A DNA stretch of 64,000 bases from Psammoneis japonica (lineage: Eukaryota): NCBI GenBank assembly GCA_008632985.1, contig QPGO01000003.1, positions 620,001 to 684,000 of the forward strand. Reading direction: 5' to 3'. Below are positions 25,286-60,921 of the stretch, piece after piece. The notes under the pieces were generated by a model. The model was not told where the DNA came from. It made no database searches and saw nothing but the letters and a program-made list of their open reading frames with translations. Made by a program: the position numbers and the translations under genes. Position 1 is the stretch's first letter, and each line of letters starts with the position of its first letter.

Positions 25286-25741
25286 GAGCTGTGCAGCTCG
25301 AGTTTTCCACAGGCTGCTGCAGCATCATGCAGCAGCACAGGACAGCAGTCAGCAGCAGCGACACAGAGCCCAGTGGCTGTTGCTCTGGGCTGGAGCTTCA
25401 TCGCACTGGCTCTGCCAGATTCTCCCCTGTGGAAAACACACTCATGATCACTTTCACAATGGAATGAAATGGCATGAAAAGTCATTGTGATCACATCATG
25501 CTGTGTCAACTGGTGTGACGACAGACGAGTCGATGTGGTCGGTTCATTCATTTCATTCATTCATTCACGTCACAGAACTAAAAGGTGTGGAACTTTTTTA
25601 TTTTTGAGATTGCGTCGCGTCCCGCGTTCATCCATTCTTGCTTCAAGTCCATGGCAACCGCAAACTCACACTCGTGCTCGCATCGTGCTGCTTGTGACTG
25701 TTTGTCAACACATCTTTCTTGTTGTAGAACTGCTTTCCCCC

Positions 25742-36472: not shown

Positions 36473-38533
36473 GGTCGACTGCTGAAGTCTTGTCGCTAAA
36501 GTAGCTACTGTCAAAAACTCCAAGACTGCGGTGTTGCGTGCTAGTAACGCGAGCGTAGACGTCTCGTATGATTCTACGTGAAATCAAATGTTTTATATCT
36601 TTTCGTTCATGAATACGATCATCCACATCCGTTGCTGCTCTTCACTCCAGCTGACAAACTTGTCGCGCACTGCCTGATGGATGGTGTTGACAATGGTGCT
36701 TGCAAATGCTGCAAGTGATCCACCCACCACAAGAGGTTTTGTTGTGAGACAAGAACAGGATGCACAGTGAAAGACCAACAAGGTGAAAGCACAAAACCAA
36801 CCTCTTTGATTTGGGGTGACCCAAGTGTGATTCATTGCACCCTGGCAACACTTGCGGATTTTTGCCAAATTTTCAATGTTGCCATTTTGCTCCCATGTTG
36901 TCTCTGTGTGTTTTCTGCATGCACAATTGTTTGTGTCAACTCAGCCAGGGGATCCCTTTTGCTGCAACATGCACCTGACAACTGCACTGCTTCTTTGTGA
37001 ACGTTGGGTGAGGCAGCAAAGCCGCTTCGAACAACACAATGTGTGCACCGGTGCATGCAAGTGTTCTTGTTGAGCTGCAATGCCTTGCAAGGAATGGATT
37101 GAAGGCCCTGAGGAACTGGTCAAGCTTGCATGTGCAGTCAACCTGAATCCTGTCCTTGATGAGAAGAAAAGGGAAGACCAGCAATTGTTGAGAAAGTTGT
37201 GAAAGATGTGGTGGGAAGGTCAAAAGCAGCATGGAAGCAATTGACAGCAACTGGATTGAAGCTTTGTGCAAAAAACCATTTGCCTGCAAGACAAATTGAG
37301 CAGGCACCACTCCTTTCATGCCAGCCATGCACAAACAGAGCTGCTCAAACAGACACACTCTGCGGCCAGGCATCATTCGCTTGGCCACCCCCCAAGGTGC
37401 AGCATCCGCAGCAACTGCTCTTGCACTTGAGCCACAGAGAGTTGGGTCTTTTAGCCATTTCCAAATGATTGCCAGACACGCTGCAAAATCCAGAGTGAGT
37501 GGGCTGCATTCTTGTCCAGCACCTGATGAAGCCCTTGACAACAGTTTTGCCACACCCAACAAGATGAGAAGGTGTGTGCTGTGCAACATTGAGAAAAACA
37601 GTGTTGACATGCCAGCTGCACCCCACCCATTGCACCAGAATGCAACATCAGTGCTGCTGGTGTCAACACAGCCAAGAAAATGATCAACCTTGTCTCTGTG
37701 GCAGACATTTGGAAATTCTTTGGCTGTTTTGCTTTTGTCTGCTGCTTGGGGGTGCAGAAACATTTTGCAATGCCAGCAGCATCATGGCGGGGCAGCTCAA
37801 AATTTTGTGAACAAGCTGACAGCTTGGGGTCACAGGGCTCAGGCAGATGTGGAAGAGGTGGAGTGCACAAAAGAGCAAAATTGTCAAGATCAGCTGGAGC
37901 AAAGTCAAGGCAGAGCCAACCTGCGCTTCCTTGAGATTCACCACTGGCAGATGTTCCATCCTTTTATTTTCCAAAGCTTGGATTTTTTGGCGAGCTTTTC
38001 CTTCTCTCTCAAGCTTCAGTTTTGCAGTCTCAGCTGCCTTGTCATCCAAGGCTGTGCTGTCAGGGGTGCCATCATCCTTGGCAGCAGCTTTGCTTCCCAT
38101 CTTGGGTGCTGAAGTGAAGACCATTGTGTGCAAACAAGCCTGCCCCCAGTGGCACTTGCAGCTGCACATGCAGCATTGCAAGGCATTTTGCTCACCCAGA
38201 AGCTCCTCTTTCAGCTGAGCAATCATCCTGCACAAAGTTGACACTTTGAAGTTGGGTGCAAAGATGCAGCCCAACTGACCATCCTTGACAGGCTGAATCA
38301 GCGACTCACGCAAGGCACAATTGTCAGAGCAAATGATGCCACAGTTGGGGCCAGGGTTGTGGGACATGGAGAGCTCATCTGCCAAACACAGAGCAATGGC
38401 AGCAGCCAACAAAGCAACAGCAGCATGTGAGAGCATGTGGTGCACTGCAATGATCAACTGCCAGCGCACTCATTCTGAGCACAGTGCCTTGGCAACATTC
38501 ACTTTTGAGCAAAAGCAAAAAATGTTCTTCATG

Positions 38534-38980
38534 TGCAGCATGCATGCAGACAAAAGGTTGTTTTTGTCACGCCCTTTGTGACATTTAAAGGCTGCAACAC
38601 GTCGCCGTGACACATTGGCTCTCATTGGCAGCTGTGTGTTGCACTCCTCCCCATGTGTCACGCGTCCATGCGGCTCTTTACTGACGTGTGCTGACACTGC
38701 ACGGTTTTGGCGGAACAGTGTGGGCACGTGCGAAGGAACGTGCAGAACTGCACAGAGTTTTGCGCGTTCGACAGTGATCAACGTTGCTGCAAACAACTCC
38801 CACTCAGGGTTTCGAACCCCTGGCCTCCTGCCTGATGGTTACGATGAACCACTCCGCTGTGAATTCACAACGCAGCATGCATGCAGACAAAAGGTTGTTT
38901 TTGTCACGCCCTTTGTGACATTCAAAGGCTGCAACACGTCGCCGTGATGCGTTGACTCTCATTGGCAGCTGTGTGTTGCA
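38534..38980 (-). mobile_element. TRIM (miniature non-autonomous LTR element): 110-bp LTRs at 38534-38643 and 38871-38980, 4-bp TSD CATG
   Basis: Direct repeats with 6 mismatches and TG...CA ends on one copy. The PPT catggggaggag on the minus strand abuts the 3' LTR. CATG flanks at 38530-38533 and 38981-38984. Confidence 0.85.
38795..38866 (-). ncRNA. tRNA-like (Pol III A/B box) cassette inside the TRIM
   Basis: Minus strand reads cagcggagtgg (A box, TAGC>CAGC) and ggttcgaaacc (B box) at tRNA spacing. The cloverleaf is imperfect. Confidence 0.55.
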
Positions 38981-40566
38981 CATGAACTGGGGATGTTGGC
39001 AAAGTGGTTGAAAGGGTTGGCTTGTGATCATGCCAAGTGTGCCAACAAATGTGCAACCCTTGAATCTCTGCTCACACAAGTGGAAGAATCGCTGCATCAC
39101 ATGCAATGATCAAGAGCTGCACAAGACATGTGGTGCCATGAAAAAGTTTTGCAAGAAGAGGCTCATGCACATGACCAGAACATGGCAAAAGGCAAGTGAC
39201 CTGCTGGCATGAATGCTGCAACACTTGTCTCTGGGCACAAGTTTGCTCATTTGCTGTGCGTTGGAAAACAAACATTTGAGCAACAAGCTGCTGCATTGCA
39301 GTGCCTGTTTAACCTTGCCATGTGTGCAGACAATCTTTTGGAATTTTGGTGCAGCTTGCAGCTTGCAGCTTGCATTTTGCATCTTGTCAGATCATTGCCA
39401 TGCCAACAGCTGGCTTGCACCATGAGCCAGCAAGACAAGCATTGCCAGCACATGCAATGTGATCATCCCAAAGGAGATTTTCAACCAAGCTCATTTGAGC
39501 AACAAGAGCTGAGTGCTGCTGAAGCTGGCATGATTGAAAAATGGTGCAGCAACAGAAAAACAAAAATGCTGTTTCCACCACACCCAGAGTGAACAGATGT
39601 CATCTTTGCCTGCTGATCTGAGCAAATGCATCAGCTCTCATCTCATGAGGAAGAGGGCAGCAGAACACAAGATGACAGTGACAACAACTGAAGGCTGATG
39701 AGAACAATTGCAAAAGAACCCAGAGTGACAGACCTGAACAATAAAAGTGCTCTTGCTTGCAAACAAACAAGAAATGAGCTGCATTGTTTGGAAGCAGCGA
39801 ATGGACAAGCAATCTTTTTTTGACAAATTTTTCTTCTTGCTCCACTTGCACAGTTCTGTGTGACCCATGCTGCTGAAAGCAGGGATGATCGTGCCATCAA
39901 ACAACCATTTGCACTCCTCAAGCCCACTCACCCAACCCATCATCTTGACCCCACCATCATCTTCACCATCACATGTTGTGCTGGGAGGACAGTGCCTGGA
40001 TTGCTCCATTCCCTGCAAGGGAAGACTTTCTTGCCAAGTGCCAGGAGAAGTGAGTGGTGACAGAGCTCGTGAGACTTGGACAGGGAAACCAAAGTGTGCG
40101 TTTCAAATCATGACCTGCGTTGGGACAATGACTGCACTGCTCCAAGGCAGCATTCAAGTGATCAAACTCATCGACGTGCTGCTGCCACTCTGCCCTGCTG
40201 GCAATGGCTCTAGAGAGAGGATGCACTGTGTTGAGGTCAATTGGATCAAGGCAACGCTTGCCTTGCCACATTTCTTTTCTGGTGGTTGGCCTGTGAGCAT
40301 TCATTGCTCTCCAGAGGGTGCTCCATCCAAAGCAAACAGAGGAGTTGAGAATGCGTCTCGGCTGCAGCAGAGGAGGTTTTACAGTGGCACGCCCTGATGT
40401 CAGCTTTCAAGAAGGAAAATCGAGAAGCCATCCGAACGTCATGCGGACAACAATGTTTGGTTTTTGACATTCTTTCGAAACAAAAACATGCAATGGAACT
40501 GTTGCCAGCAGGACAGTGTCAATCACTTGATCATCAATCGTTCAAAATGAACACAAAAAATGAGAG

Positions 40567-41266
40567 CTACACTGCGCCCAGTTTGTTCACTTTTTCCATC
40601 ATCTCGGCTGCCGCTTTGGGTGCGGACTGTGCAAAAATGTCGGGAGCCGCAGACGATCCGCAAACCTCTTGATTGATGGAATCGGCACCATGAATGCTGG
40701 ATGTGGAAGGAGCCGCCCCAACAATGGGCATGTCGGAAAAGCAACAACAAAGCAACGACGACAGCCCCTTGTCACCAATGGAACCACCGACCGAACCGGC
40801 CTGCAGACCACCACACTTGCCGATGGAAAATCCCGCATCCATGCCAACCTGCATTTTTCTAGTGCCTTCTGTCATTTGCAAGAGCGCTGCTTCATTCAAG
40901 GCAATGACAACCTGCTTGTGCTTGCATCCAATCACACCAATCTGAAAGGACGTCATTTCGCAAAACATGGGAGCAGACCAAGAGCCGTCCTCTTGATTTT
41001 GCTTGACAATGACGCCTCTGCCGCCTGCGAGAGAAACAGATCAAAGATGTGATGACAGTGCGTTTTAAACAATCAGCAAGAGTCTCCCACATTGCTGTGC
41101 AATTGCGTTCAAAACAAAACACACTGCACTCACCACTCCCAGTGAGAACAAGGCCAATGTCTGTCACAGCAATGAGGGCAACTCCAGCGCACTTTTGAAA
41201 CACGGACGGGTCAATCTTGTCACACCGATCCACCGCACTGATGGCATTCTCAATGTGCGACTCCAT
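40567..41266 (-). pseudogene. SYLF/Ysc84 (DUF500) domain gene, exons 41266-41134 and 41024-40567; frame intact but TpA-stripped
   Basis: The spliced product reads IDPSVFQKCAGVALI...LTGSGGRGVIVKQ..DGSWSAP...INQEVCG. Intron GTGAGT..GCAG at 41133-41025. No Tyr in about 196 aa. Confidence 0.65.
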
Positions 41267-43918
41267 CGTTGCTTGTTGTTGTCATTGTTGTCATCGTGGG
41301 CTGGATTTTTGCTCGCGTGTGAAGCACATTGTTGTTGCTTTTATTTTGAATTTTGTGTCGCAAAATGTTCCCGGAAATTTCGAAACGCGTGAAGAATCGG
41401 ACGGATTCGACAGACAGGCAGACAGACACTTTGTCTGCATCTGTCTAATCTTCTTGCTGGACGACGCAACATGTCCCAAATCAAATCTGATTTTCAATTT
41501 GGGCAGATCACTGGTGTGCCGCAAAAGCACCATCGTTCTTGTTGGCTTGTTTTCATGCTTGCACGCTGCTTGACTGCGATGACAAGAGCATTTTTGCCTT
41601 CACAATGAGTGCTGCTGCTGCTGCTTTTGCAAAGAAAAGAGAGCCCTGTTGCAGAGACAAATTGTGAGTGCTTCTTCTTCTTCTTCTTCTTCCAATTGGT
41701 GTTGCACACTCCACTCATGCATTCTTGTGTTCTGTCAGAGTTGCAAACTTGACACTTGCCATGGCCGCTGCAGCTGTCTTGCCAAGAAAGGAAATTCACA
41801 CAGTGGCTCTGACAGCTGCAGAGCCGCTTGTTCTTCAAAGGTTGCAGCAGCTTGGTGTCACCATGATGACAGTCATGGGGAAAATTGAGTGCACATGACA
41901 AGGGAAAGGTCATCAACAATGTGCAAGCTGTTGCTCAATGTGGCGCACAGACCAAAATCTTTGTCCCTGCAAAGTTCTTTCAAAAGGATTTCTTCTTGAC
42001 AAATTTGCAAAGGGGCTGCAGAACAAACACACACAGGTGTCCATGATGTCATGCAAATGTTTGCAGGCTGCCTCTTGACATTGGTGTTTCTAAATAAAAA
42101 CACATGAAGTTGGGCAAGATTTCAGCAACCAGCCAAAAACAATCAGGAGTTGGCAGATGAGATGGGCTTGCAGTGCGGCATGCACAAAATTCTTGACTGC
42201 AGCAAAGGAAGCCTGAGCCCAGCAAAGAAAGATGCTTGTGAGTGCTTTCTCAGGAGCAATGGCCAAACATGCATCCTGTTGAGATGCCAATCTCAAGGAA
42301 CCAGCTGCAAAGCCATTGCCACCAAAGTCCATTCTCAGAAATGAGCCTCAAGAGATGCCTTTCCTTTTCATCTAACTTGGCAACAACAACAGTGCCTGGA
42401 TGCCACATGCATCCACATTTGTTTGAGACGCTGTTGTGGTGCTGAAATTGAGTCAGGAATGGACACCTGAGGTGTTGGACAGAATGACTGATGGCAGGTG
42501 TAACAATGCTCTAGAAAATGTGGGTCATGAGGCACTCAGCAATGATGCTGACCCCACAAACCATGGGGGTGATTGTTGAACAGAGAAGGTCTTTTTGTGT
42601 GCAGCATTTCACCACTCTCAGTGCAAATGCTTGTTTGAGCACTGCATTGCTCACATGTTTTTCTGTTCACAAGTGTGTGCTCAATTGTTTTCTTTCATGA
42701 GCACTGTTTTTGCATGTGTTTTTGGTGGACCTCAAGAATTGCACATTTGACACAAAAGTCCACATTCAACAAGCCCATCTGCAGTGCATTTTTCCTGTGG
42801 CTGAAATGTTGTCAGGCACACAAGCCAGCCACAACAAGAATGGTGCTTCATGTTGCACCAGCAACAAAGCCCTCTTGTGATCAAATCAGTTGCTGCAATT
42901 GTGCCAATGTTTTTCTTGTTGCCACAAGGTGACAAAAATTGTTGAGCCATCATGGGCACTTGACATTTCATGGTGCACGTGGGATGAAAAAACAATGCAC
43001 AACTCTCGTCCCCCACTCTCACCCTTTCCAGCTCTGACAAAGATCAAGATTTGGTGCCCAGAAGGGCAGCTAAAAAGCCCACGCATGTGTTTGTTGCATT
43101 CTGAGTGGCTCAATGCTGTCGCATCCGTTGCTCTTTGACACAGCTGACACTTGGCATGCCACATGATGGGCCTCTCTGCAAGTCCACGTTGTGCAATTCT
43201 AAAACACACGCGTGGCACCTGGCATCACGTCCAGCACGTGCTGAATGTGTTTTGGGCCCATTTTTCATTGGCTCGACTTGACAACAGAGCCATGTGGTCT
43301 GATCCCACCATGGCATCCCTGATGTGCAGCTTGCAAATGTTGGACAAGTGATGAACAAACTTCTCCTGACTCTTTTGATGGAAACCTTTCTACCACCCAT
43401 GGTGCCCACCTGTTGTTTGGCACAGTGCAGCATGCCTCGCTGCTGGACAACACGGCGAGACCGTGCATGAGCCTCTTGTGCGTGGCAACGCAGCATTGTC
43501 AACACGTGCCTGGGAAGCACGACCACAGGAGGGCGTGGCTCCAGGTCTCAGGCAATTCCAGAAGGATGCTAAGAGAGCATCCGTGTGAAGCACACTGGCC
43601 CGTCGTCTGGCCCACGATGGTGGCGTGATTCCACACGATGACATCACTCGTGCATGGCACGTGATGGCTTGATTCGCACGATCCACAATGCGAACGCACG
43701 ATCAATTTGGTGCGATCCAAATGCGAACGAACAGGGATTTGGCAAGATCCCCCATTTGCACGATCCCATTTTCTCTGCTCTAAACTAGCTCACAATTTTC
43801 ACAACGACAAAGTCGCAACACATCTTCTTTTTCAGCGCCTGGCACATGCACAGGGCACAGCAATGTTGCTCCCGCATGTTGTGCGAGGCAACAAAATCTG
43901 CAGAAACGAAACTACGAA

Positions 43919-44995
43919 ATGTTGGCAGGACCGACAAATCTTAAAACGACCATGAAGAAGCGGGTTGAGCCACCGATTCTGTTCGCACGGCCAGAGAAGA
44001 AAGAGCTGCAGCAGGGCGAGCACCAGACGTTCAAGCCACGTAACAACCCTGCTGATCCGGACAGTCCAACGCACAAGATGGGCATCCCGCACCTTTCTGC
44101 GGCTGCATGTGAGACACTCCCAATCTTTCTGCGCAACGTGGATCGCGTGCACGAAGGACAAAACATCACGACCGGGCCAGCGAAATTTGCCCTCATGCGT
44201 GACCTGCTGCAGGGTGATGCTCTGACGTCATTTGATGATGCCGCTGACAAGCAGGCATCCCAAACCAACGCTGCGTGCGCAGCATGCGTCGCGAAGCTAA
44301 AGGAAAGCATCTTCCCACATGGGGCGGCACCACTGCAGAAGCGCCATCTGCGGCGCTTCATGCGCAAGCCCGCAGAGGTTTCTGCTCGTGACTGCGCCGC
44401 GAGGGCTGTTGAAATTAACGGCCACATCTCTCAGTTTCCACCCGTGACGGAGGATGGAGAAACACCGGCGCCACTGCCCAATGACGAACCATGCGACATG
44501 TTTGAGTGCGGTGTGCCGAACGCATGGCAGAAGTTCATGACGCTACAGAATTTTGACCCATTGGTGCATGCTGTCGCCGAATTTGCACAGTTCTGCGAGC
44601 GCATCGAGCAGGTCGAGCTCGCCGAAGGTAACCAGGACCAACATGCCAAGGTTCCACACAAGCGGGGACGTAGAACGGACAATCCTGAGTCGTTGATCAC
44701 GACCCAACGGAACACCCAGAAGTCGTGCATGCTGCACGGGATTGACTGTGGACATCATGCGGAGGATTGTCGTCAGCTCAAGCACCACGTGAAACATGCC
44801 AAGACTGGACATTCCAATGACGGAGGCGGCAAGCCTGGTGCAAAACCTTGGAATGAGGAAGACATCAATGCTCTCATCGGATCGAAGGTCGAGGAGTTCT
44901 TTGCCAATGCTCAGAAAAAGCGCAAGGCCCGCGAGGAGGAGCTCAATCACTTCCGCGACCTCAACTTAAGTGATTCCGAAGATTCGGATGCCTGA
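43919..44995 (+). CDS. gag: Retrotransposon Gag-like protein (hypermutated)
   Basis: ORF directly after the 5' LTR with LQKRHLRRFMRKP and a zinc knuckle CMLHG..CGHHAEDC. No Tyr in 358 aa. Confidence 0.8.
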   Translation: MLAGPTNLKTTMKKRVEPPILFARPEKKELQQGEHQTFKPRNNPADPDSPTHKMGIPHLSAAACETLPIFLRNVDRVHEGQNITTGPAKFALMRDLLQGDALTSFDDAADKQASQTNAACAACVAKLKESIFPHGAAPLQKRHLRRFMRKPAEVSARDCAARAVEINGHISQFPPVTEDGETPAPLPNDEPCDMFECGVPNAWQKFMTLQNFDPLVHAVAEFAQFCERIEQVELAEGNQDQHAKVPHKRGRRTDNPESLITTQRNTQKSCMLHGIDCGHHAEDCRQLKHHVKHAKTGHSNDGGGKPGAKPWNEEDINALIGSKVEEFFANAQKKRKAREEELNHFRDLNLSDSEDSDA

Positions 44996-45099
44996 GAAGG
45001 GGGCCGACACGATGCAGGCAGTTTCAATGCATTGGATGAATGTGTGAATGAACAACTGAATTGCCATCGTACACGTGTTGCAGGCCAATCCCGCAAATG

Positions 45100-45625
45100 A
45101 GTTAAAAAGACTCATCTCACTCCAATCTTGTTTGTGGCTGTGAACACTGAACATGGCAAGGGCAAGACTCAAACCATTGAGGCACTGCCAGACAGTGGCG
45201 CCAGCAGCACTCTGCTCGACAGTCGACACTGCAAACGTCTGTGAAGCCATTCAACGGCTGAGACAAACTGGGCTGCGGCAGCAGGCTCGTTTGGCACATC
45301 TGACGACTGCACCGTTAAATTTCGGTTGCCAGAATTGTCCGAAACTGCAGAACTCAAGCATGCCGTCCACGCACACAACGGAAAGTTGGGCAAGTGCGAT
45401 GTGATTGTTGGACGTGACATTCTGGAGACACAAGGCATTGACGCTGTCTTCTCTGAACAGATGACAGAGTGGCCATTGGTCAATGGAGAAGCACCAATGA
45501 GGCACGCAGATGCCACGGTGGAAACCTCCTTCTATCTTCAAGATCCAGAAGCCTTGTCTTTGGAAACCGACCGGATTTCGCGCATTTTAGACGCCAAGCA
45601 CGCGCCGGCCTGCCTCGAAGACAAA
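45100..45625 (+). pseudogene. Retrotransposon aspartic protease remnant
   Basis: ALPDSGAS at about 45182 (from the LLDSGAS motif) and CDVIVGRDILETQGI. Ends near ILDAKH. Confidence 0.75.
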
Positions 45626-46420
45626 ACGCCGAACGCAGCGTTGTGGGAAGCTCCTCCCAAAAAGGCATCGACGAACCTGCGTCACGTGCGTTAAGTGATC
45701 CTGACGTTGTCAGTTGGGTTTGTCAACTGCTTCAGTTTGAACAATTTACTTCTCCTCACATTTGCTCTTCAGCATGTGTGGTCCATTAAAAACTGTTCAG
45801 CAGCCATCATTCGAATTCTCAATGACTGGCATTTGGTCAAAAATTTGAATTTTCGGTCGCCTCAATGGTGCACACAACCATCACACCAGCACAATGTTGT
45901 TTTGCGACGACGTTTTTCATGCCGCCGATGAAGCTGCCGAACCCCGCAAGTGTCGCTGTGTGGCATTTTTTCACCTGTCAAGCCATCTTCCCTGCACCGC
46001 GCGAACCCCAACCCTGGGCACAGCAAGGAAGGGGGGCATTCCCTGACCGAACCCTGCCCTGCACCATGTGAACCCTAACCCTGGGCAGTGCACCCTGGCT
46101 GGAACCCCAGCAGTTGGGAACAGGTGGCCCTGTCCCACCCAGGGAAGGGCGCGGCAGCGACGCCTTCGGTTGGGCAAACACTGGAAAGCTCTGAGCAAAA
46201 CACTTAGAACACGTGCAAAGCCATGGCAACCCCCAAGGGAGCAGAGGTGCTGATCACACCTTGAAGCCGCGAACCCAATGTAGAAGGCGACGTTCATGGT
46301 CCCGCGTCTGCAAGCACACCTGCTCGAGCCCGCGTGCGGCAGGACAGGACCTCTGGGCGCTGGCAAACCACCAGCACTCAGAATAAATTAGATGCTCTGA
46401 TTGGTCCCCAACGTGTCAGT

Positions 46421-46493
46421 GAAAAGGTGAGCTCAGTGGTGGAGCTTCGCCGATCGTAGGACGAGGCCGGGGGTTCGAGTCCCTCCCTTTTTC
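46421..46493 (+). ncRNA. tRNA-like (Pol III A/B box) cassette within the LTR element
   Basis: Acceptor-like stem GAAAAGG/CCTTTTT, D arm GCTC-AGTGGTG-GAGC and T arm GGGGG-TTCGAGT-CCCTC. The anticodon arm is irregular. Confidence 0.65.
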
Positions 46494-46579
46494 CGTGCAC
46501 ACGTGCTTGAACCGGCAACCCGGAAACGGGTTGAGGTCACTTGCTTGACGAAGTCGCCCCACCTACATTCGATAACCCC

Positions 46580-47384
46580 GATAAACATCGCAGAGATAAT
46601 TCCATGGGAGACTCTATGCATAGATGTGATGGGGCCATATAAAATTCAAAGACGCGGAAAGGACACCTTGCAATTATGGGCAGTCACAATGATTGACCCA
46701 GCAACCGGGTGGTTCGAGATTAAAGAAGTGTCTACGAAACGCGCAGACGTCGTAGCAAACGTCGTGGAACAAACGTGGCTATGCAGATATCCGTGGCCAA
46801 CCCAGGTAGTTTATGACCGTGGGACAGAATTTATGGCAGAATTTAGCCAGATGATTAAAAATGACTATGGGATTTTGAAGAAACCCATAAGTAAACGGAA
46901 TCCACAGGCAAATGCCATAGTGGAACGTGTACACCAGACACTTGGTAACATGGTACGTTCCTTTTCAGTACAGGATATGGAACTGGACGAAGATGACCCA
47001 TGGAGTGGCATCCTCTCCGCAGTAGCCTTCGCTATTAGAGCTACGGTACACACGACCACGCGTGCAAGTCCCATGCAATTGGTCTTCGGACGCGATGCGG
47101 TTTTATCTATTGCCTATCGTGCTAAGTGGAAGCACATAGAAACCAGAAAGCAGAAGCTTATCTACTTAAACAACAAGCGTGAAAATCAGAAACGCAAGGA
47201 GTGTCAATATACCGTAGGGCAATTGGTACTTATCAAACAGGAACAATCCTCTAAATACGGTTCTGACAGCTGTGCAGGACCCGCCAGAGTTGTCCGTGTA
47301 TATGACAACGGCACGTTGCGTGTCCAGAACGGAGCGCTGATAGATACGTACAATCTACGGCAGATTGTACCCTATCACCAGTAA
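46580..47384 (+). CDS. Retroviral-type (rve) integrase core and C-terminus, N-terminally truncated
   Basis: PWETLCIDVMGPY, VYDRGTEF and NPQANAIVERVH (DDE triad). The frame is open to a TAA just before the PPT. Confidence 0.9.
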
Positions 47385-48119
47385 GACATCCTGTCACTTA
47401 ACGGCCCTGATCATGGGGGAGTGTGCAGTATGCCTCGCTACTGGACAACACGGCGAGACCGTGCATAAGCCTCTTGTACGTGGCAACGTAGTATTGTTAA
47501 CACGTACCTGGGAAGCACGACCACAGGAGGGCGTGGCTCTAGGTCTTAGGCAATTCCAGAAGGATGCTAAGAGAGCATCCGTGTGAAGCACACTAGCCCG
47601 TCGTCTGGCCCACGATGGTGGCGTGATTCCACACGATGACATCACTCGTGAATGGCGCGTGATGGCTTGATTCGCACGATCCACAATGCGAACGCACGAT
47701 CGATTTAATACGATCCAAATGCGAACGAATAGGGATTTGGCAAGATCCCCTATTCGCACGATCCCATTTTCTCTACTCTAAACTAGCTCATAATTTTCAC
47801 AACGACAAAGTCGTAACACATCTTCTTTTTCAGCGCCCAGCACACACATGGGGCAACAGAGTTGCACCAAGACTGCCACGCGATTGAGCAAGTGCAATTG
47901 TGCCACCAAGGTGAATCGCAAGTGGTTGTGCAATTTGTCCCATTGTCCATTCTGGCACACAAACAGCACACTCGTGAAGCATCAAAAGGTGTGTTGCTCT
48001 TGTCTGGCAGAATGAAGCATGTGAGACCAGACATGAGCATGTGAAAGGCATGCTTGCAATGCACTCCAGCTCAATGACAACGAGATGAGCATCGACATGA
48101 CACAACAAGGAAATTCGTC

Positions 48120-48629
48120 ATGACCAAACACAGTCTCGTGGTGAGCCGCACTGCAGTGGGCACGGTTGTGGGACGCCGCGTCGCCCCGCTCTTCTTCCGC
48201 CATGTGCATGCTGTGTGCATCAAAAGTGCCGTTTTCAAACAACCAAAGACATGGTCTCCTTCCAAATTTGTTGAGTTGACTCCCAAGATGAAACACCTTA
48301 CAAAGTTGGAGAGCTTGATGCTGTGTGGATGCAGGAAGTTGGCATCAATTCCAAATGAAGTTCTTGAGCTGCCAAGTCTTCATTTTCTCTGCTTGCTTGA
48401 TTGCAAGTTGCTTGCAACCACAGCCAAGGACATTGGAAAAGCATCTTACTCTGTCAAAGATGTGTGGATGCCAGCGAAGACTCAAAGGCACAAAAGGAAG
48501 TGGATTGCTGCACAAAAACAAACAAAGCAGGAAGACATTTGCTGTGTCGCCATGACTCACCTGCAGCTCTTTGGCCACATGTCTTGGCAGGTCCGCACAG
48601 TGATGAGAATTTCATTTCATGTGTCTTGA
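48120..48629 (+). pseudogene. Leucine-rich-repeat gene fragment, TpA-depleted
   Basis: LTKLESLMLCGCRKLASIPNEVLELPSLHFLCLLDCKLL fits the LRR consensus. Confidence 0.55.
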
Positions 48630-48799
48630 CAAAAAATCCGGACTCAGTCAAAAGACAGGTGAAAACAAGGAATGAGATCATCCCACTGTCTCACCAGCAG
48701 CATGAGGCAGCTCTCAGGTGAGTGCAACTTGGCAGCTCTCAGGCAAATGTGCAAGTGTCAGGTCGCTGTCTGATTGTTGTCTGTCATTGGTCCTTGCTG

Positions 48800-51350
48800 C
48801 TAGATTGGATCCCATTGAGATTAGAGTGGAGCAATTCTGGTGCAACCGTGAAGACTGGCAAGCCACACATGAGTGAGGTAGAATCCAGTGATGCAATGAG
48901 CAAGGCAAGGAAGGAGAGATGCAACTGTGGCAACTGGCAAATGAACTCCATCACAAATGATGGAGAGCATGCTTGAAGATGACAAGACAATGGATGTTGC
49001 ACGCTGGTTGACTTGATGCTCTTTTGTTCCACCCAAACCAGATTGACCACCAACATCTGTGGGCAATGAACCACCACCACAAGCTGAAAAAGCAAGTCAA
49101 AGATCCAAGACAAGCAAACTTTTGAACAAGGTGTGCAGATCGAACAGAAGCCACTGGCACGATGGCCAAACATGAAGAAAAGATTGTTGGCCACTGCTGC
49201 AAACAGAGTTGAGCACACAGAAGAACAAAGCAGAGCAAGACCTGCTCTGCAATCAGTGGCTGCTCCAGGACCCTCAGGACAGGACCAAATGTTTTGAACA
49301 AAAAGAAGAATGAAAAAAGCTTTTGGCCAAGAGGGCATGTCCTGGCATGGTCAGATGTTTGAGGAAGGATCCAATGTTCCCTTCATGCAAGAACCACTTC
49401 TGTCTAACTTTGGCCACTTGGCAAACACCTCAGCAACAAACGCTGTGCCAGACAGCACCTGCCATTTGCCAGAGAGAGCAGATGAGCATGTGGAGAAATT
49501 TCCCCAACAGCTCCAATGGCCTGACCCCCCACACTGGAACTTCATTTAGATTGCACTGCAGAGGAACACATTGATGACTGGAGGAAAATGCAAGAATGTG
49601 CCTCAAGCAGCCCCTTTGGACCATCTTTTGCAGACTGCAAAGCTGGCTCAAAAAACTTGACAATGGCAGAATTTGACAAGACTCCTGCATGGTTGCAATG
49701 CCGGCAAAGCACAGATGTGCTCCAAAGCATTGGACAAAGATGATTGATGTTGTGACACCCAAGAAGACTGACTTGACACATGCGCCAAGAAGCTTCAGAC
49801 AACAGCCTGTTTGATGCAATGTTCAACCAGATGAACAAGCACTGTGAACAAGCACTGACAAATCAAGCTGAAATCTACAAGGCAACACCATGGGAGGTGT
49901 GCAAAAGCCACAAATGACACTGAGCAACACACTGCATCTTAAACAAGGTGTTAACCAGGGGGACATGTTTTGCCAGCTGCACAGACCAGGAGCAACCAAT
50001 GGTGCAGAGACTCAAGGTCATGCTGCAACAGAATTTTGCATGAGATTCTGCAGAGCAGCAGGGGAGGACATGGTCTTCATGATGACTGGAGCTCTTCAGA
50101 TGCAGGTTCAACATTGCATTTGAACAGCTCACAGAGAATCTGAAGACACATGCATGGCCATCAAGATTCCACCACACAAGGCATTTTTCAAGGTCACAGA
50201 GCAGCACCAGCATCTGGCTGCTTGTCAGCTCCCACACAACAAAATGCCTTGAGCTGAGAGACATGGCATTTGTGCAGAAATCTCTGTCTTACAAAAGGCC
50301 TTTCACTGCATGTGCCAGATTTTTGTTGATGACACAAATCTCCCATTCTTGTCTCAAGACAAGGCTGCAACCTGCAAAACAGTTGTGTCAAGTCCAGGCA
50401 AATGGTGGAAAGGACCCGCCTCCCCACACAGGCTTTTTCAGAATCTGATGACTGTGTGCACAAGTTGACAGGACAAGAATGAGTGCACTGCTCAAGACTG
50501 CCCTGCCAATGAAGCAAATGGAAGAAGTTCTGCCAACTGATGACCAGACAAGGCTGTTCTGGCAGAAGGAATCCGAGTGTGCAGCTGTCAGCATCATGGA
50601 TGGATCTTTCAAAGAACACATGGTGACAGCAGCACCAATGATGTTGGCACCATTGGAGGGACACTCTCACAGGTGCCAAGGTGTGAGTCAGACTCCAGGC
50701 TGACAACAAGACCAAAGTGCACACTGAGGTGAACTGGGGGGCATGAAGTTGCATTGGCAGCTGCTGCCAACAGGCCACTTTTGCTCAAAAGCATGGCTGA
50801 TGCTGGGAACCAGAGTGCTTTTTGTGGCCAAACAGATGACTTGTTGCTTGTGAAGTGCCAAACTAAACTCAACATGAGAAGCAAAGTGTTTTGTTGGCTT
50901 CTCCCAAGTGGACTTTGAAAATGACAATGTTGTCACCTCCAAGAGCACAAGCATGGGTCAACCAGCCATGTCAACAAGCTGAGTGGACCACAATTTCACA
51001 ATGCTGGACCATTTTCAATCAAAATTGGTTTTGTCATGGATCTCTGCATTTGGCCTCATTTTCCACTTCATGTGTGGCTTGGGATTTGTTTTCTGTGTGC
51101 TCTTTTTGAAGCAGCATTGGCTGTGATCCAAGCACCCATTGTGGTGAGTCCAAGTGTTTGTGTCACCATTGAATGGCTCCTTTCCAAGAGCAGCCTCAAG
51201 TGCATCTGTTGATTTTTCCCTGGTGCTGCTGCAGGGCACAAAATGTTTGTTTTGCAACAAGGTTGTTTGGGGCCCAAAAGGCACTTGAGCAGATGACAAA
51301 AAACAGGAACAAAACTTTCCTTCATTTTTGAGACCACACAACATGGTCTC
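48800..51350 (+). mobile_element. Heavily decayed non-LTR retrotransposon (LINE with RNase H) relic
   Basis: PFMQEPLLSNFGHLANT at about 49379, RNase H-like DGSFKEH..TAA at 50599 and DQSAH*GELGG at 50710. Many stops and frameshifts; boundaries are approximate. Confidence 0.6.
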
Positions 51351-51717
51351 TGTCTCTGACTGGAGCTAAAAACCAGTGCAGGGCTCCACCCAGCACCTCC
51401 TGCCCTTTTCCAGATGCTCTGGCACAACAAAGATCAAGAAGGTGCTTGGCACCCCCACCAGAAGGGCGCAGCTGAAACATGCGTGCATGTGTGCACAAAG
51501 AGACACAGATCTGTGGCATGCATTTTTTTGTATTCTGAGTGGCCCAATGCCATCGCATCCGTCGCTCTTTGACAAACAGCTGACACAGAGCCCATGATGG
51601 GATTGGGGCACGGCGGGATGGACCCGCCCGCCCTGCTGCTGGCACAGCATCGTCCGTCTGGCCATCTGCGAGAGCTGCTGCGCGATGCGCAACGCGCTCA
51701 CGGAGGCTCTCAAGCGC

Positions 51718-54700
51718 AATGGAGACCAGGACATTAAAAAAAACGGGTGACAGCGCGCACGCGCAAAGAAATCCACAAAATTCCGATTCAAAACACAACC
51801 AACCGTCACCTCCATGACCGTCAGTTTGTTGCGTCCGTCTCATCCCGTAGTCTGCATTGTTGCTGTATAACACATCATAACTCCACTTCATCCGCTATGG
51901 AGATAAAAGGCTGCTGATTACTGGCTTATCACTTTCTCCATAAAGATGGAATGTCGTTTGATGACTTATGCACCATTTTTCGGCACGGAGCGACAGTGCG
52001 TGGCAGGTAGAGACGACTCGTTTATTGCACGTTGACACCAACTGGCTTGTCTCGGAAATGTAGCAATCATATCAATGGACTTATCATTGGGAAGAGGCAG
52101 CAGTGTAAGTGGCAACCGTGTGCCTTGTTGCGTGCCAGCAGTTGTGTGTGTCTGCACTTGATCAATTGATCAACCAGCAATTGATTTGCCTGTTGCTTTG
52201 GATACACTTCTTTATTATCCCACGTAAGACATATGGAGTGGGCTTTGTTAAGAATTCAGACGTTGCCATGGATCAGAAGACTGTGTTTCTAAAGAATCTT
52301 CCGTGTCAATGATGGCGCACTACTTGTTGCAGACAATGGTTTCATGGATGGCACACGTGACGTTGCAATTCCGGATGGCATATACGGGTGGCATATTTCT
52401 TGGTTCAAAGCATGAGCATGGAGCAGACAGCGGCTCTTTACTTGGAACCACACTTGGCCGTTCCAACAGCATTGATGATGGCGCACTGCTCGGTGCAGAC
52501 AATGGATTCATGGATGGCGCACGTGATGGTACATCACTTGGCATTGCGGATGGCATAGGTGATGGTACATTACTTGGCACGGAAGATGAAATTGATGATG
52601 GTGTAGCACTTTGACTTCAAATGGGAGAGGAGTGTTGATAGAACCGCTGACCGTTTTATGGATGGCACCTCACTAGGTTTAAATGGTGTTGGACGTGTTG
52701 CACTAGCAGATGGTGGCATTGGGCATGGTGTAGCCGGTGTTGGGTGTGTTGGACGTGTTGTACCAGTGCATGGCAGTGATCAAGATGATATCCTTGGACT
52801 GGACATTGAATGTATGAGTCGAAGACTTTCGGGTCCAGAACAACGTTCGAAGCGTAGCTCTGGATGGACCGAGTATTTAAAACGGGGCGGAACACTAGAC
52901 GACGTCATGTTTGGACCAACGAAGATCCAAATGACACCGTCTACCACATTGGATTCCTATTTTCTATCGCGCTGTGGTAAGCAATCACCGTGTCAATATC
53001 CCCACAGCAATGGCGTGGTACAAGAGGCGTTTCCTATAAGCCATGCTGCGAATGAATCTTCCAAGACAACGTACGTGGTGGACATTGAAACGTCAAGGAT
53101 GGATTTTGCAATTTCCATTATTACAGAATTGGATGCTTTTCGGGATCCATGTGGTTAAATGAAGGAAGATCGATCTTGGTTCTGGGACTGTTGTGGCTTT
53201 GGCAAGGCGCCGGAAAACTCGACGAAGTACGAAGGCAAGGGAATTGACTCGGGCCAACAAGTCGGTGCAGTAGAGAGTAGATAAGACTCGGATGATCCTA
53301 GTGACAGAATGTTAACAAGTGACAAACACACATGCTAAAGATGGATAGGTTTACTGTCCATGTCTCGGAGCTGTCGGGACATGTTTAACGTGGCATCAAG
53401 GTCAACTCGATAGTGCCATGCCGTTGAACAATCGTGTGACACATGGCTTTCCAGGCTAATTTTATGCCCAAGCCTACACCATAAATGTGCATTGTTAATA
53501 ACTGCTTCTTTTTACTGACAATAAGAGAGTTGTTTTGATCTCATTGTATCTAACAACCTTGTCACCTGCCATTCTCGTAACCGCTTGATGTTATGGAGGC
53601 TTTTGACATTTCGGATCTTTCAATCACGTGTTCAATTCGGTACACACTCGACAATTCCAGGGGCATTAAGTTGTTGCGTTTCCTCGCCCGCTCCAATAAA
53701 TTCGCCTCGTGCAAGACACAATCAAAACAAGAATATGAAGCCACCAGCAGCCCACGCTCCCACCGGTGCAATCATGGATTCAATTCCGTACACACTCGAC
53801 AATTCCAGGGCGTCGAGTTGTTGCATTTCCTCGCCCGCTCCAACACATTTGCCTCATGCAAGACGCAACCGAAACAAGAATATGAAGTTGCTAGCAGCCC
53901 ACGCTCCCCATCTACGCCGTGCCCATTGCCACCCACGCCACCATCTGCCAGTGCAACACATCCAACGCCGACTAGTGCGCCGCACCCAATGCCAAATACA
54001 CCACCATCTGCTAGTGCAACACGTCTAACACCGCCTTGATTGCTGGCAGTGCACACGCTCCAACCGCCTCGACCAGCGCTAGCAGCCACACAGGCTCCCA
54101 CCGCCACCAGTGCTAGCAGAGTAACCAGGCTACCACTGCCACCAGTGCCAGCAGCATGCAGCACAAGAGCAGGCACCGCAAGAAGATAGAAGGATCCAAC
54201 CACCTCGATTGCTGGTAGTGCACACGCTCCAACCGCCTCGACCAGTGCTAGCAGCCACACAGGCTCCCACCTCCACTGGTGCTAGCAGCAACCAGGCTCC
54301 CACTGCCACCAGTGATGCCGTCCACAAATCCATCAGCTGCACCGACTGCGCACAACCTCCCAGTCCAACGGTGTGGGTCCACTGACAAGATTGCTTTATT
54401 TCCGAGACAAGCCAATTGGCGTCATCCATCATCTGAAACAAGCAACACACCAGCAACTACGTGACTCCATCATCTGTTCCGAGTAGGGCGCTATCGTCGA
54501 CACTGTCGGAACCACCAGGTGTGGTCCCAAGTCCATGCTCATACTTTGAACCAAGCAATGTGCCATCGGTTTCTCACAAAATCATAAGTGTCGACACAGA
54601 AGATTCTTTAGAAACGTAGACTTCCGACCCAAGGTAACAAATGAATTCTTAACAAAGCCCGCTCCATACGTCATACGTGGGACACTTGTGTTAGAAGCAA

Positions 54701-55123
54701 AAGACAAAACAGGTGATGGTTGCCACTTACGCCACTGCCTCTTCCTGATGGCATGGGTCCACTTACACGATTCATATATTTCCGAGATATGCCAGTTGGT
54801 GTCAACATGCAATAAACGAGTCGTCTCTACCACATACCACAACATGCACCGTCGCTCTGTGCCGCAAAGTGGTGCATAAGTCATCAACCGATATTCCTTC
54901 TTTCTCGAGAACGTGACACACCAGTAATCGGCAGCCTTTTATTCCCATAGCATATGAAATGGGGTTCTGATGTGTCAAACAGCAACAATACAGACCACCG
55001 GGATGAAACGGACGCAACTAACTGACAGTCATGGTGACGGTTGGTGTTTTTGAATCGGGAATTTTTGGGATTTCTGTGCGCGTGCGCGCTGTCACCCGTT
55101 TTTTAAATGTCCTGGTCTCCATT
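51718..55123. repeat. Diverged inverted duplication: arms 51718-52307 and 54593-55123, enclosing two divergent decayed Pro/Ser-rich gene fragments
   Basis: aatggagaccaggacatt...aaagaatctt matches the reverse complement of the right arm. The peptides PCSCFEP/PCSYFEP and PPSASAT occur on opposite strands. Confidence 0.85.
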
Positions 55124-57692: not shown

Positions 57693-60472
57693 TCAACCTT
57701 CTTTCTCTTCGGCCTTGAAAGAATCAGTTTGAACGTTGTCAGCTACATTTCCTGCTGACTCTGGTTTCTGGGCGGGAGCGGGTGGAACTGTGATTTCACA
57801 GGACAACGCAGGTGCCGGCTTTGACTGGTCTTCGTCTGCTTCTGATGCACATAGAGCAGTTGCATCATGGAGTGCGGACGCTTCGGCCTCCAGTTTCACC
57901 ACTGGCTCTTGTGCCGCCGAAAATGGAGCGCTCGACGGCTTCAATGTTTCTTGTTCCAAATCTTGGACTTGAGAAGATTCGAACTCTTTGACCGGAGCTG
58001 CCGCCGGTTTCGACGGTTCTTCTTCTGAAGCATCTGGGGCTCTGGGTGATGCGACCGCCGGTTTTGACGGCTCTTCTGCCGCCAGTTTCACTGACTCTTG
58101 TGCTGCCACAAACGGAGCACCGTCCGGTTTCAACAGTTCTTTTTCCGAATCTTGGGCTTGAGAAGATTCCGTCTCTTTCGCCGACACTGACGGAGCTGCC
58201 GCCGGTTTTGGCGTTTCTTCTTCTGAAGCATCTGGGACTCCTCTTGGAGGCACAGCCGCCGGTTTTGACGGCTCCTCCCAGGCAAACTCGTAGTCGTACC
58301 CTGGATATGTCGTCGATGCGAACAGTTTCGTTAGAGGTTTCAAAAGCGCTTCCATAACTGGGACGGAAAAAGCCTGTGGATGCGACAACAGCAGGGAAAA
58401 GCATTGGCAACATCATTGGCAGTATTTGGGGAGAAATCACAGCAGAACTCACATTTCCAATCAAGTGCTTGGCATAATCATCTGCGTGGAACCAAACAAC
58501 GTTGGTTTCGCCCTTTACGGGTGGTGCCAACTTCAGTGTGACAAAGGGCCACTCTGGGATGAGGTCGTATCTGTGACAATCGACGACATCGAGGTTGTGA
58601 TAGTTTCCTTTGAAAGTATGGTACTTTTCATCCAAAGCGTCCCTCCACTGGGGGCTCCGTCGGTCTGATATACAAGTGCTTTGTCCCGGAGGATGCCAAA
58701 CAAATCTTTGACTGAATTGTGTTGAAAGATTCAATTTTTCAAATAAGTCTCAAATAAGATGGCATGGTGTCGTCAAACCAGCTAAAAGAACTCACCTGGC
58801 CTTTCAACATAGTTTTCTGGGAAACCCATGAACTTCTCTCGCTCGGCCACAGTTAGCGGCCTTCCATGGTATCGTCCCTTTTTGTCTTTCTCCTTTTTGA
58901 AAACGTACATCCGAAGGGTATTTGGATCATCAATTCGTGTGCGAGACGCCATTATGCAATTGCATTTGACAAGAGTGTCCTGGCACACGATCTGCGCAGG
59001 CAAGTAGAACTTGCCTTCCAGACAGCACTCGGGATCCTGGAGCGGAAAAAGAAGCGGAACAACGGTTTGTGAGTGTGCTGAAAGCAACGCAAACGAAAGC
59101 GAAAGCACGAGATAGTCCCAACTCTTTTGCTCACCACTTCACTTGCTGCAGACGTATAGTGGAGATTCTCACATGGGATGTTTGTCCAAAAGTTCCGATT
59201 TCTCCTAGCAGGAGACACGTACATGGAATCGAACTTGACTGGATCAAATTCTGTAAACCCAAAGGCTTGGTTTACTGCTCCAAGGTCATCCCCAGTAATG
59301 ACAACATTTTCAGCCAAAAAGTACAATGGGTGTGGTTTCTGAATTGCTTCAATAATCCGAATGGCGTTGCCAAAATCCACAAGATAGCTGCCTTGCTTTC
59401 CTTCTGCGCCTCTACGATATGCATTTACCATGGAATAATCAACACACGGCGGGCCACCGATGACAATGTCGATTGGCCCGTGGTTTGCACACATGCAGGC
59501 AATGCTGTCTTGTCTGAAGCTGGAGCTTGGGTCTTCATCCTCACCAACCAGATCCTCCCATTTTTGGTACTCATAGACATGTTCGATTCCATCCGGCTCC
59601 AGGCCTTTGTCGCTGTACGACGCGTCATGGTTGGTTCGATAGACATGCGTTGCAACCTTGTCGTGCTCAATGTGAATAACTTTCTTGATACGAATTCCCA
59701 GACGCTTCAACGCCACAATTCCTGTTCCAACACCAGCAAAAGCTTCCAGAACAACTACACCTTGACGTTCTTCTGGGTTTTGCTCGCTTGTCTCTTTATG
59801 CTTGTCATAAGGTCTCTGCACACCTTCCACGAACTCAGAACTCGTCAAGAGCCTGTCATGTTCCCCTTCACACTCGTCTTCATTGTAAAATTGTGATTCT
59901 TGCTTTTTTGCGTTACAATATGCCTCGATAATTTGCTCTCCCTCTACCCATTCCATGGGCCGGGAAAATTCAGGCAAAAGCTCACCATCGCACATTTTTT
60001 CAAGGGCTTCATTGACAGCTGTCGTGAATGGATCACACCACTCGCTTTGACACTCCTCAATTTCTTCTGCTGTCTGTCCTGCTTTCGGAAGGACCCCATG
60101 ACAGCACTTAAGGTGGTAAAGGTGCCGTTCAGCGGGTGATTCAGCGGGTGAGATCCAATAGTCCACCTTTCCTTCGGCTGGAGCGTGGGCTTCGAGAGCA
60201 TGCAGCCTTTCCGGGTGCTTGTCACTACAATCACACCCAGAACAGCAGAATGGAACTTGCTTTTGAAGCGTCGCTTCATCTCCCTCTTCCGTACCACCAA
60301 ATCCCTTCTCCATGCGTTTGACTTGGTTCCGGGCTTTGCGACGAAGCGGCTCATGGAGCTCGTTGCGGCTGGGGTCTTCTTCTGTCGGCAATCCATCACT
60401 CTCTTTGTTGGTTGCTGCTGCAACTTGAGCCGGCTTCTCAACGCGAGGGGCCTTGCTACGACGGCGACCCAT
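57693..60472 (-). CDS. DNMT3-like C5-cytosine DNA methyltransferase; exons 60472-59135, 59036-58796, 58711 (or 58664)-58453 and 58373-57693
   Basis: Motif I LEAFAGVG, motif IV IVIGGPPC, motif VI FLAENVV, motif VIII ARRNRNFWTNIP, motif IX EREKFMGFPENY and spliced motif X LIGN/AFSVPVMEALLKPL. GT-AG introns. Confidence 0.88.
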
Positions 60473-60921
60473 GATAAATGAGAAGGATAGTGATAAAGAA
60501 TCAGTGTCGGTGTGTTTAAGGACAGAGTTTAAGTGTTTTAGGGCGTTTGCGGCTAAATCATGACACCGTACTCGTACCTTGTACCGTACCGGTAGTGCCT
60601 ACCACACACGTGCGTCACTCGTTGACAGAAGATTTGCGCGGGAAATAAATAACATGACTGAGCGAGTTCGTCCTATCCCAAATTCCAAAATAGCTACCGG
60701 TAGGGCCCAGAATGGGAAACTGCGATACCGTACGAGTGTACGGTAACCACATGAATGAAAGAAACCACTCAGCACATCATGAGAACAGCGTATCTTGGTT
60801 CTATTTTAAGTATGCATACCTGAGATGATTCAAGGTGGACCGGAAGTTAGTGCTTCCTTCGTTTCTTCCTTTTTTATGATGCCACAGGCTACGGTAGAAA
60901 TCATTTCACACTCACATTCTT

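Follow-up and report, generated by a model that had tools for sequence, protein, structure and literature searches.

What kind of process can leave the Gag frame of a retrotransposon open from end to end and at the same time empty of tyrosine? The question is raised by a Ty3/gypsy-type long terminal repeat (LTR) retrotransposon lying in a 64,000-nucleotide stretch of the diatom Psammoneis japonica (assembly GCA_008632985.1, contig QPGO01000003.1, positions 620,001 to 684,000), which is called the window here and whose numbering is used throughout. The span that drew attention, 43919-45625, is very probably the Gag-protease half of a non-autonomous element of this type, in agreement with the assignment to diatom gypsy elements in a first-pass annotation made from the letters of the span. 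That annotation had also proposed that Gag and protease were inactivated by recoding (Tyr to His or Cys, Leu to Pro) through the loss of TpA dinucleotides. The data described below support TpA loss as the cause, and we can conclude with good confidence that a DNA-level process, changing TpA to CpA or TpG after integration, produced the recoding.

Recoding of Gag and protease

The element and its immediate surroundings comprise the following features.

43422..43425, + strand: left candidate 4-bp target-site duplication, ACAG, read by eye and possibly a chance match
43426..43857, + strand: 5' LTR, 432 bp, with TG...CA ends and three TpA left; direct repeat with 47424-47855
43919..44995, + strand: Gag frame of 358 amino acids (aa) with no Tyr, ending at the native in-frame TGA at 44993-44995; 14 homologues
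45098..45100, + strand: first of two premature in-frame stops in Pol, a former CGA now reading TGA; other copies read C at 45098
45116..45625, + strand: aspartic protease domain, Pol profile positions 1-167, with a weak match to Pfam Asp_protease_2
45652..46568, + strand: TpA-poor segment of about 0.9 kb unrelated to Pol, replacing reverse transcriptase (RT), RNase H and the integrase zinc finger; copies diverge here
46421..46493, + strand: tRNA-like sequence within the middle segment (full-length match to Rfam tRNA RF00005 at 34.0 bits, above the gathering score of 29; E 6e-6)
46564..47815, no strand: TpA-intact island with 79 TpA in 1.25 kb, from TpA positions and counts
46569..47384, + strand: integrase core with an intact frame and normal TpA (Pol profile positions 768-1038 at 46569-47376, E 1e-126; Pfam rve)
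47424..47855, + strand: 3' LTR, 432 bp, with TG..CA ends, TpA-intact save in its last 18 bp, and a purine tract in front
47856..47859, + strand: right candidate target-site duplication, ACAG, directly outside the 3' LTR

LTRs, Gag, aspartic protease and the integrase core are thus present in Ty3/gypsy order. The coding part of Gag, 43919-44992, is open, as had been claimed, and could be aligned with 14 homologues (E 8e-79 to 7e-37, 33-42% identity), none of which has a Pfam family. Its 358 residues include no Tyr, compared with 6-11 in each of the homologues (mean 2.2%); for an expectation of approximately 7.9, the Poisson probability of finding none is approximately 4e-4. The alignment shows what took the place of the missing residues: at the ten columns with Tyr in at least four homologues, the window copy has His at six, Cys at two, and Phe and Ser at one each; Tyr is missing even at columns where all 14 homologues carry it. 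The proportions of His (5.0%), Cys (2.8%), Ala (10.9%) and Pro (7.3%) each lie above the highest value among the homologues. Moreover, the codons GTA, ATA, TAT and TAC are all absent from Gag, compared with 11, 8, 8 and 3 occurrences in the integrase of the same element.

The four motifs that had been taken as marks of recoding are all present and show the same tendency. KRHLRR (44339-44356) and INGHI (44414-44428) carry His at columns where 7 and 10 of the 14 Gag homologues, respectively, have Tyr. In a protease alignment of the window copy with 12 relatives, ALPDSGAS (45182-45205) has a Pro, encoded by CCA, where all 12 have Leu, Ile, Val or Cys, and DAKH (45590-45601) has a His where all 12 have Tyr; a further protease motif, GKCDVI, has Cys where Tyr is found in 12 of 12. 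At one Gag Tyr column, Cys is also found in two homologues. In the integrase, Tyr is retained at six of the eight columns where at least five of eight relatives have it. The open reading frame (ORF) at 46431-47381 has, in its 317 aa, the 11 Tyr that had been counted previously.

The notion that the element was disabled by recoding and not by stops holds for the missense load but not in full, because two extra in-frame TGA codons are found in the protease and a large part of Pol has been lost. TGA codons occur in the Gag-protease frame at 44993, 45098 and 45242. Gag and Pol form one frame split by a single TGA in all ten related loci examined (L002, L005, L008, L010, L012, L013, L014, L017, L032, and L045), and the TGA at 44993 is thus native to the family; such conservation points to stop-codon readthrough as the family's route to Pol expression. 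At 45098, the entire contig depth of other copies reads C, giving CGA, so that this stop could be ascribed to CpG decay. The second premature stop, at 45242-45244, lies in a protease that retains DSGA at 45191-45202. A change of TpA to CpA or TpG adds no stop of its own, since by the codon table the one codon that it can turn into TGA is TAA, itself a stop.

The largest lesion of the window copy is the loss of approximately 600 aa of Pol. The Pfam order in relatives is protease, RVT_1, RNase H, H2C2 zinc finger and rve; RT and RNase H, expected between protease and integrase, are present in the relatives and absent in the window copy. A Pol profile was made from eight relatives, with positions up to 1038, and its positions 168-767 are unmatched in any frame of the approximately 0.9-kb middle segment by tblastn and profile search. 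The window copy is a deletion derivative of its Ty3/gypsy-type family. Profiles of Gag and Pol found no second copy in the six frames of the window; however, the family is very highly repeated in the sequenced sample, where 4214 contigs match 43300-47900. These assembled contigs come from one sequencing sample, and contigs tend to lose rare variants. In most other copies, protease position 45651 is joined almost directly to the integrase at approximately 46588, and the summed contig depth is 200-800 over 45652-46568 versus 13,000-45,000 elsewhere in the element. From the contig sequences, the abundant form of the family apparently lost its RT by deletion and must rely on other elements for its movement.

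Direction, timing and rate of TpA loss

The two LTRs of a single insertion start out identical, and differences between them therefore record events after integration. The same ACAG directly outside both LTRs fits a single insertion and speaks against a crossover with another one. The LTR comparison covered 415 ungapped positions, made up of 21 TpA sites, 32 CpG sites and 309 others. Of the 21 TpA sites in the 3' LTR, 18 have CA (10) or TG (8) as their counterpart in the 5' LTR, compared with 3 of the 32 CpG sites, and only 2 of the 309 other positions differ. All of the changes are on the 5' LTR, and every TpA and CpG site that it has is kept in the 3' LTR. Transitions account for 28 of the 29 differing positions and the TpA type for 24, and of the 19 changes from A/T to G/C, 18 are at TpA. 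Expressed as rates, 86% of TpA sites changed versus 0.65% of other positions, a ratio of approximately 300 that is rough because only two background differences underlie it, and the per-site rate of TpA loss is approximately 20 times that of CpG decay. This bears out the earlier claim that TpA loss had outrun CpG deamination. Along the LTR, the two outcomes are mixed (9 runs of CA or TG versus 9.9 expected), and they are balanced per kilobase, with an absolute skew of at most 0.14; both strands are hit equally. A single-strand, one-event origin of the kataegis type was dropped, given this balance and the random order of the outcomes in the LTR.

The TA state is older than CA or TG. This follows from the TpA-rich integrase, which remains open and keeps most of its conserved Tyr, and from the TpA content of relatives and the letters of other copies. 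Among the best-supported 40 of 387 rows examined in the comparison with other copies in the sample, TA stands at the CA/TG sites of the window in 16, and 367 of the 384 variable places between the window and other copies are transitions. In 49 related metagenome loci, the observed/expected ratio (o/e) of TpA is mostly 0.55-0.93, and it is 0.85-0.93 in intact relatives. The lowest values for Gag among these loci, 0.23-0.38, belong to L001, L007 and L044, which are among the closest relatives and lie on contigs of one naming series; the Gag of L001 has one Tyr in 352 aa. Judging from their sequences, these three may be copies from related organisms in which mutation has gone part of the way.

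Base composition divides the window copy into two parts. TpA o/e is 0.15 in the span 43919-45625 (Gag 0.17, protease 0.17), 0.12 in the 5' LTR and 0.19 in the middle segment, whereas the integrase reaches 0.94 and the 3' LTR 0.86. The depleted span keeps a CpG o/e of 0.91 (Gag 0.98). The TpA that survive are not a random sample. TTAA makes up 5.2 times as large a share of surviving TpA in TpA-poor blocks as elsewhere, and CTAA/TTAG 3.2 times; ATAT is found in 0 of 115 survivors versus 71 of 1395 TpA elsewhere, ATAC/GTAT is at 0.13 times its share elsewhere, and GTAC is also lacking. Of the 26 survivors in the element, 14 have the context TTAA or CTAA/TTAG, compared with 13 of the 79 TpA of the intact island (Fisher p = 5e-4), and the three TpA left in the 5' LTR are CTAA, CTAA and CTAG. 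From this bias, the process seems to favour RTAY and to spare YTAR (R, purine; Y, pyrimidine).

Three other origins of the tyrosine-free Gag have to be weighed against these data. If there were no mutator and the Gag of this lineage were merely poor in Tyr, by chance or by compositional selection, the poor conservation of Gag proteins and the Tyr column at which two homologues also have Cys would be in keeping with it; however, every one of the 14 homologues has 6-11 Tyr, His, Cys, Ala and Pro exceed the homologue maxima, and the same TpA loss is found in the non-coding LTR and in flanking DNA. The LTR comparison contradicts this idea, whose probability we regard as practically nil. The direction could also be reversed, with C-to-T changes at CpA/TpG, as in repeat-induced point mutation (RIP), having made TpA in the integrase and 3' LTR while the rest is TpA-poor by nature. 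RIP-type defences occur in fungi and RID-related DNMT4 genes in diatoms (PMC9998398), and the TpA o/e of the island, 0.86-0.94, exceeds that of the genes in the window, about 0.5-0.8. On the other hand, C-to-T changes at CAA, CAG and TGG yield stops, yet the integrase is open for 317 codons; its Tyr coincide with Tyr columns of the relatives, whose own TpA o/e when intact is as high as that of the island; and Gag lacks Tyr where all homologues have it. This reversal, already contradicted by such observations, is only marginally more probable than the first alternative.

The remaining candidate is an ADAR-like A-to-I editing of the element RNA before integration, fixed by reverse transcription. 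An A-to-G pattern with a 5' U preference is that of ADAR (bioRxiv 10.64898/2026.01.13.699255), and the target here is a retroelement. Nevertheless, LTRs made from one template start identical and these differ at 18 TpA sites, the same TpA loss occurs in flanks that do not belong to the element and in a relic of a cellular-type gene, and the CA and TG outcomes show no strand coordination. ADARs are not known outside animals. RNA editing is therefore a very improbable main cause, with slightly more to be said for it than for a reversed direction, and it may add to changes that Gag and protease inherited.

TpA-poor domains and the intact island

The loss of TpA extends far beyond the element. Segments were called TpA-poor when TpA o/e fell below 0.25 on a 500-bp measure; by this threshold, 28 kb of the 64 kb (44%) is TpA-poor, in blocks at approximately 17.3-26.0, 28.5-32.3, 32.8-34.3, 36.8-46.3 and 48.0-51.8 kb with sharp edges, and some kilobases contain 0-2 TpA. 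Across 103 half-kilobase intervals, TpA o/e correlates with CpG o/e (Spearman 0.74) and inversely with the CA+TG content (-0.83). The features of these domains that bear on the element are as follows.

36751..43425, no strand: upstream TpA-poor, CpG-poor domain that hosts the insertion, with TpA o/e 0.03-0.14 and CpG o/e 0.06-0.72 per kilobase
40570..41040, - strand: Ysc84-like gene relic of 157 aa with no Tyr (Pfam Ysc84, E 8e-5; 31 relatives, best E 2e-13)
47860..51750, no strand: downstream TpA-poor, CpG-poor domain, from composition and segmentation

The flanks are poorer in TpA than the Gag-protease span, and CpG o/e in the old flanks is 0.03-0.4. The element is a young, still CpG-rich insertion in an old domain that is depleted in both dinucleotides. 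Apart from the element itself, transposon domains were lacking in the TpA-poor blocks (24 kb) in a Pfam scan of the 81 window ORFs of at least 120 aa. The Ysc84-like ORF had no match in a set of longer proteins, and an exhaustive search then gave its 31 relatives; aligned with them, it has Cys at the near-invariant Tyr of the family, which indicates that the process also recoded a cellular-type gene. Local duplicates within TpA-poor blocks differ by paired CA<->TG changes, the signature of a single TA resolved in two ways. Tandem duplications lie in TpA-free DNA at 18597-19667 (536 bp, 85%) and 17660-17978 (160 bp, 96%), the former pair with four paired CA<->TG differences.

The annotation had suggested a mutator that removes stops and leaves long, missense-loaded frames liable to be annotated as genes, and as to the kind of effect on open frames it was right. 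TAA and TAG together do fall five- to six-fold (6.5 per kilobase in TpA-poor DNA versus 36.5 elsewhere), and frames of at least 100 aa rise from 1.9 to 3.8 per kilobase. This inflation is only approximately two-fold because TGA is commoner in TpA-poor DNA, at 46 per kilobase versus 38 elsewhere.

A question of its own is how half of the element escaped. The left edge of the TpA-intact island, 46564, coincides with the junction of the unrelated segment with the integrase core, where the profile match starts at 46569, and the 106 nucleotides to the left of it contain no TpA. The right edge lies 18-40 bp inside the end of the 3' LTR, whose last three TpA sites are mutated with outcomes unlike those of the 5' LTR. 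The whole element may have been mutated and its integrase core and 3' LTR then overwritten from an unmutated copy by gene conversion or, with less likelihood, by an assembly or polishing artefact in so highly repeated a family. We would give overwriting of this kind slightly under an even chance. At most a few tens of bases separate each island edge from the corresponding edge of the family-homologous block, the differently mutated last three TpA sites imply that the mutator once had access to the 3' LTR, and the island has lost no CpG either. Several details fit less well. The commonest copies rejoin the integrase only at approximately 46588, whereas intact TpA at 46564, 46573 and 46582 lie to the left of that point, and a donor of the common form therefore does not fit. 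The two LTRs share TG at 43621-2 and 47619-20, where 97% of the depth of other contigs reads CA, and the letters at 47163 and 47651 are in no other contig; both points are weak, given the loss of rare variants in contigs. An assembly artefact should, in addition, have affected the equally repeated Gag-protease part.

Alternatively, a boundary of the chromatin type may have shielded the integrase core and 3' LTR in place, and the odds of this against overwriting are roughly even. Transfer RNA genes act as heterochromatin barriers in yeasts, and by analogy the nearby tRNA-like sequence, approximately 75 nucleotides to the left of the TpA boundary, could be such a barrier. Its D-loop has TG where the tRNA consensus has TA, and ARAGORN called no tRNA in 45000-47000.

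Mechanism and relation to known systems

The post-integration process that very probably recoded Gag and protease would operate as follows. Once an element has integrated, TpA in its DNA would be changed to CpA or TpG, that is, by A-to-G change on either strand of the palindromic TA step, within regional domains and on both strands alike, at approximately 300 times the background per site and 20 times the rate of CpG decay. In coding DNA, TAY (Tyr) would become CAY (His) or TGY (Cys) and CTA would become CCA, GTA and ATA would vanish, and TAA and TAG would be destroyed with no stop created, the outcome being an open, heavily missense frame. Although the spectrum, direction, post-integration timing and regional extent are all shown by the LTR pair and the composition of the window, several points weigh against so simple an account. 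It is drawn from one 64-kb window, in which the mutations are known as a fossil record. One A-to-G change in the LTR, at 43710, lies outside any TpA. In Gag, the TA-compatible letter makes up only 0-71% of the depth in the best-supported 40 of 387 rows, which suggests that the CA/TG alleles of the window copy recur in many others; part of the Gag-protease state may thus go back to a source copy that had been mutated before, instead of being made in place. A simple regional mutator also leaves unexplained the sharp island of 79 TpA inside a saturated domain. If many copies do share these alleles, non-autonomous copies may have gone on multiplying after they had been mutated, which is a lead for further work.

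The closest precedent is found in the chlorarachniophyte Bigelowiella natans (Mettrop et al. 2026, bioRxiv 10.64898/2026.01.13.699255). In mutation-accumulation lines of this alga, two viral insertions gathered 231 mutations, of which 230 are A to G or T to C; all of these 230 lie on TpA, at approximately 1000 times the background. New mutations arise in cultures, in some lines only; the TpA-poor predicted genes of this alga are enriched in RT and DDE domains, and many TpA-poor frames are unannotated. In both cases, changes are almost exclusively A to G or T to C at TpA, giving CpA or TpG, and they are regional and far above background (approximately 1000-fold in B. natans and 300-fold here by the LTR clock). 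The two cases differ in that B. natans is a rhizarian and P. japonica a stramenopile, and that new mutations in laboratory lines are seen in the former versus the fossil record of one window in the latter. TpA o/e is 0.45 in the giant-virus region of B. natans versus near-saturated values of 0.00-0.10 over kilobases here. Furthermore, TpA loss coincides here with CpG loss and surviving TpA are biased in context. The sequences hit in the window include an LTR retrotransposon and a cellular-type gene relic. By this likeness, the diatom process would be of the same kind, and it presumably serves as a defence against mobile DNA. A full-text literature search gave no report of TpA hypermutation in diatoms, and the diatom case would be a new occurrence of a hypermutation described once, in an unrelated alga.

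An ADAT2-like DNA adenine deaminase has been proposed as a hypothesis for B. natans (bioRxiv 10.64898/2026.01.13.699255). For the window, a DNA adenine deaminase would be a guess as to the agent, and the general Pfam scan of the 81 window ORFs found no deaminase domain. On a bolder view, a TpA-specific, domain-targeted DNA mutator, presumably an adenine deaminase, would be a genome defence across distant lineages of the stramenopile-alveolate-rhizarian (SAR) group, diatoms and chlorarachniophytes among them; in diatoms it would act on silenced domains that are losing CpG, prefer RTAY over YTAR, saturate much of the genome and fill assemblies with long false ORFs; an epigenetic boundary, and not a repair scar, would in that case mark the island edge near the tRNA-like sequence. 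Taken as a whole, this view is doubtful, if conceivable.

Better-known systems resemble the diatom case in part. Fungal RIP, in Neurospora and others, likewise acts on DNA, causes transitions at a particular dinucleotide, ruins mobile elements and produces blocks of odd composition. However, it turns CpA into TpA, raising TpA and making many stops, whereas TpA is erased here and no stop can be created; C-to-T change at CpA, TpA excess and new stops are not what the window displays, the direction being opposite. In the available text of a paper on diatom DNA methyltransferases, RIP is mentioned only by way of the RID-related DNMT4 family (PMC9998398). APOBEC3, which causes G-to-A changes on cDNA, and ADAR, which causes A-to-G changes on RNA, also disable retroelements with clusters of transitions, and the 5' U preference of ADAR matches TpA. 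Such editing takes place before integration and on one strand, while the changes here came after integration, affect the two strands alike and extend beyond the element; instead of sharing strand-coordinated edits, the LTRs have 18 TpA differences with interleaved outcomes. Methylation-driven CpG decay is itself present, as seen in the 3 of 32 CpG sites of the 5' LTR, the CGA-to-TGA change at 45098 and the CpG-poor flanks, but per site it is about 20 times slower in the element, and it creates stops. The element itself resembles Ty3/gypsy retrotransposons (Metaviridae) in its TG..CA LTRs and its order of Gag, in-frame TGA and Pol, and it differs in that the window copy, and apparently most copies in the sample, are without RT, RNase H and zinc finger.

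Should the process prove real and common among diatoms, it would represent a mutational defence opposite to RIP in a second and ecologically dominant lineage; an old shared mechanism would be plausible, and diatoms would offer a tractable group in which to hunt for the enzyme. Gene prediction would over-call genes in such genomes, for which Tyr-free, His/Cys-rich models could be used as a simple flag. Dating by LTR divergence would be badly wrong unless TpA as well as CpG sites were masked, 24 of the 29 differences here being of the TpA type. LTR pairs would also serve as an internal clock for the relative rate of the process, with no experiment needed.

The TpA-poor blocks alternate with ordinary genes, including those for FG-GAP, thioredoxin, bromodomain and MnmE proteins, and the genes of the window are long single ORFs. 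The best named matches of the MnmE gene are all from diatoms (Fistulifera, Cylindrotheca, Nitzschia, Seminavis, and others), with a best identity of 64%; a protein atlas gave the lineage no more finely than eukaryote. A 944-aa FG-GAP/Kelch-like ORF at 25478-28309 (+ strand) begins in a TpA-free run and has a TpA o/e of 0.19-0.31 in its later part; it may be an apparently real gene partly affected by TpA loss. A 548-aa ORF at 58955-60598 (- strand) contains a C5 cytosine methyltransferase domain whose nearest solved structures are those of DNMT3A/3B (E 3e-16), and it lies in DNA of normal TpA content approximately 7 kb from the closest depleted block. A single open frame of 3462 aa at 2035-12420 (+ strand), with 57-60% GC, is built from disordered repeats of the PT type (Pfam PT, E 7e-183). 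To the right of the last TpA-poor block, an inverted repeat of approximately 400 bp and 83% identity (51718-52117 and 54718-55123) encloses approximately 2.6 kb and may represent the ends of a DNA transposon.

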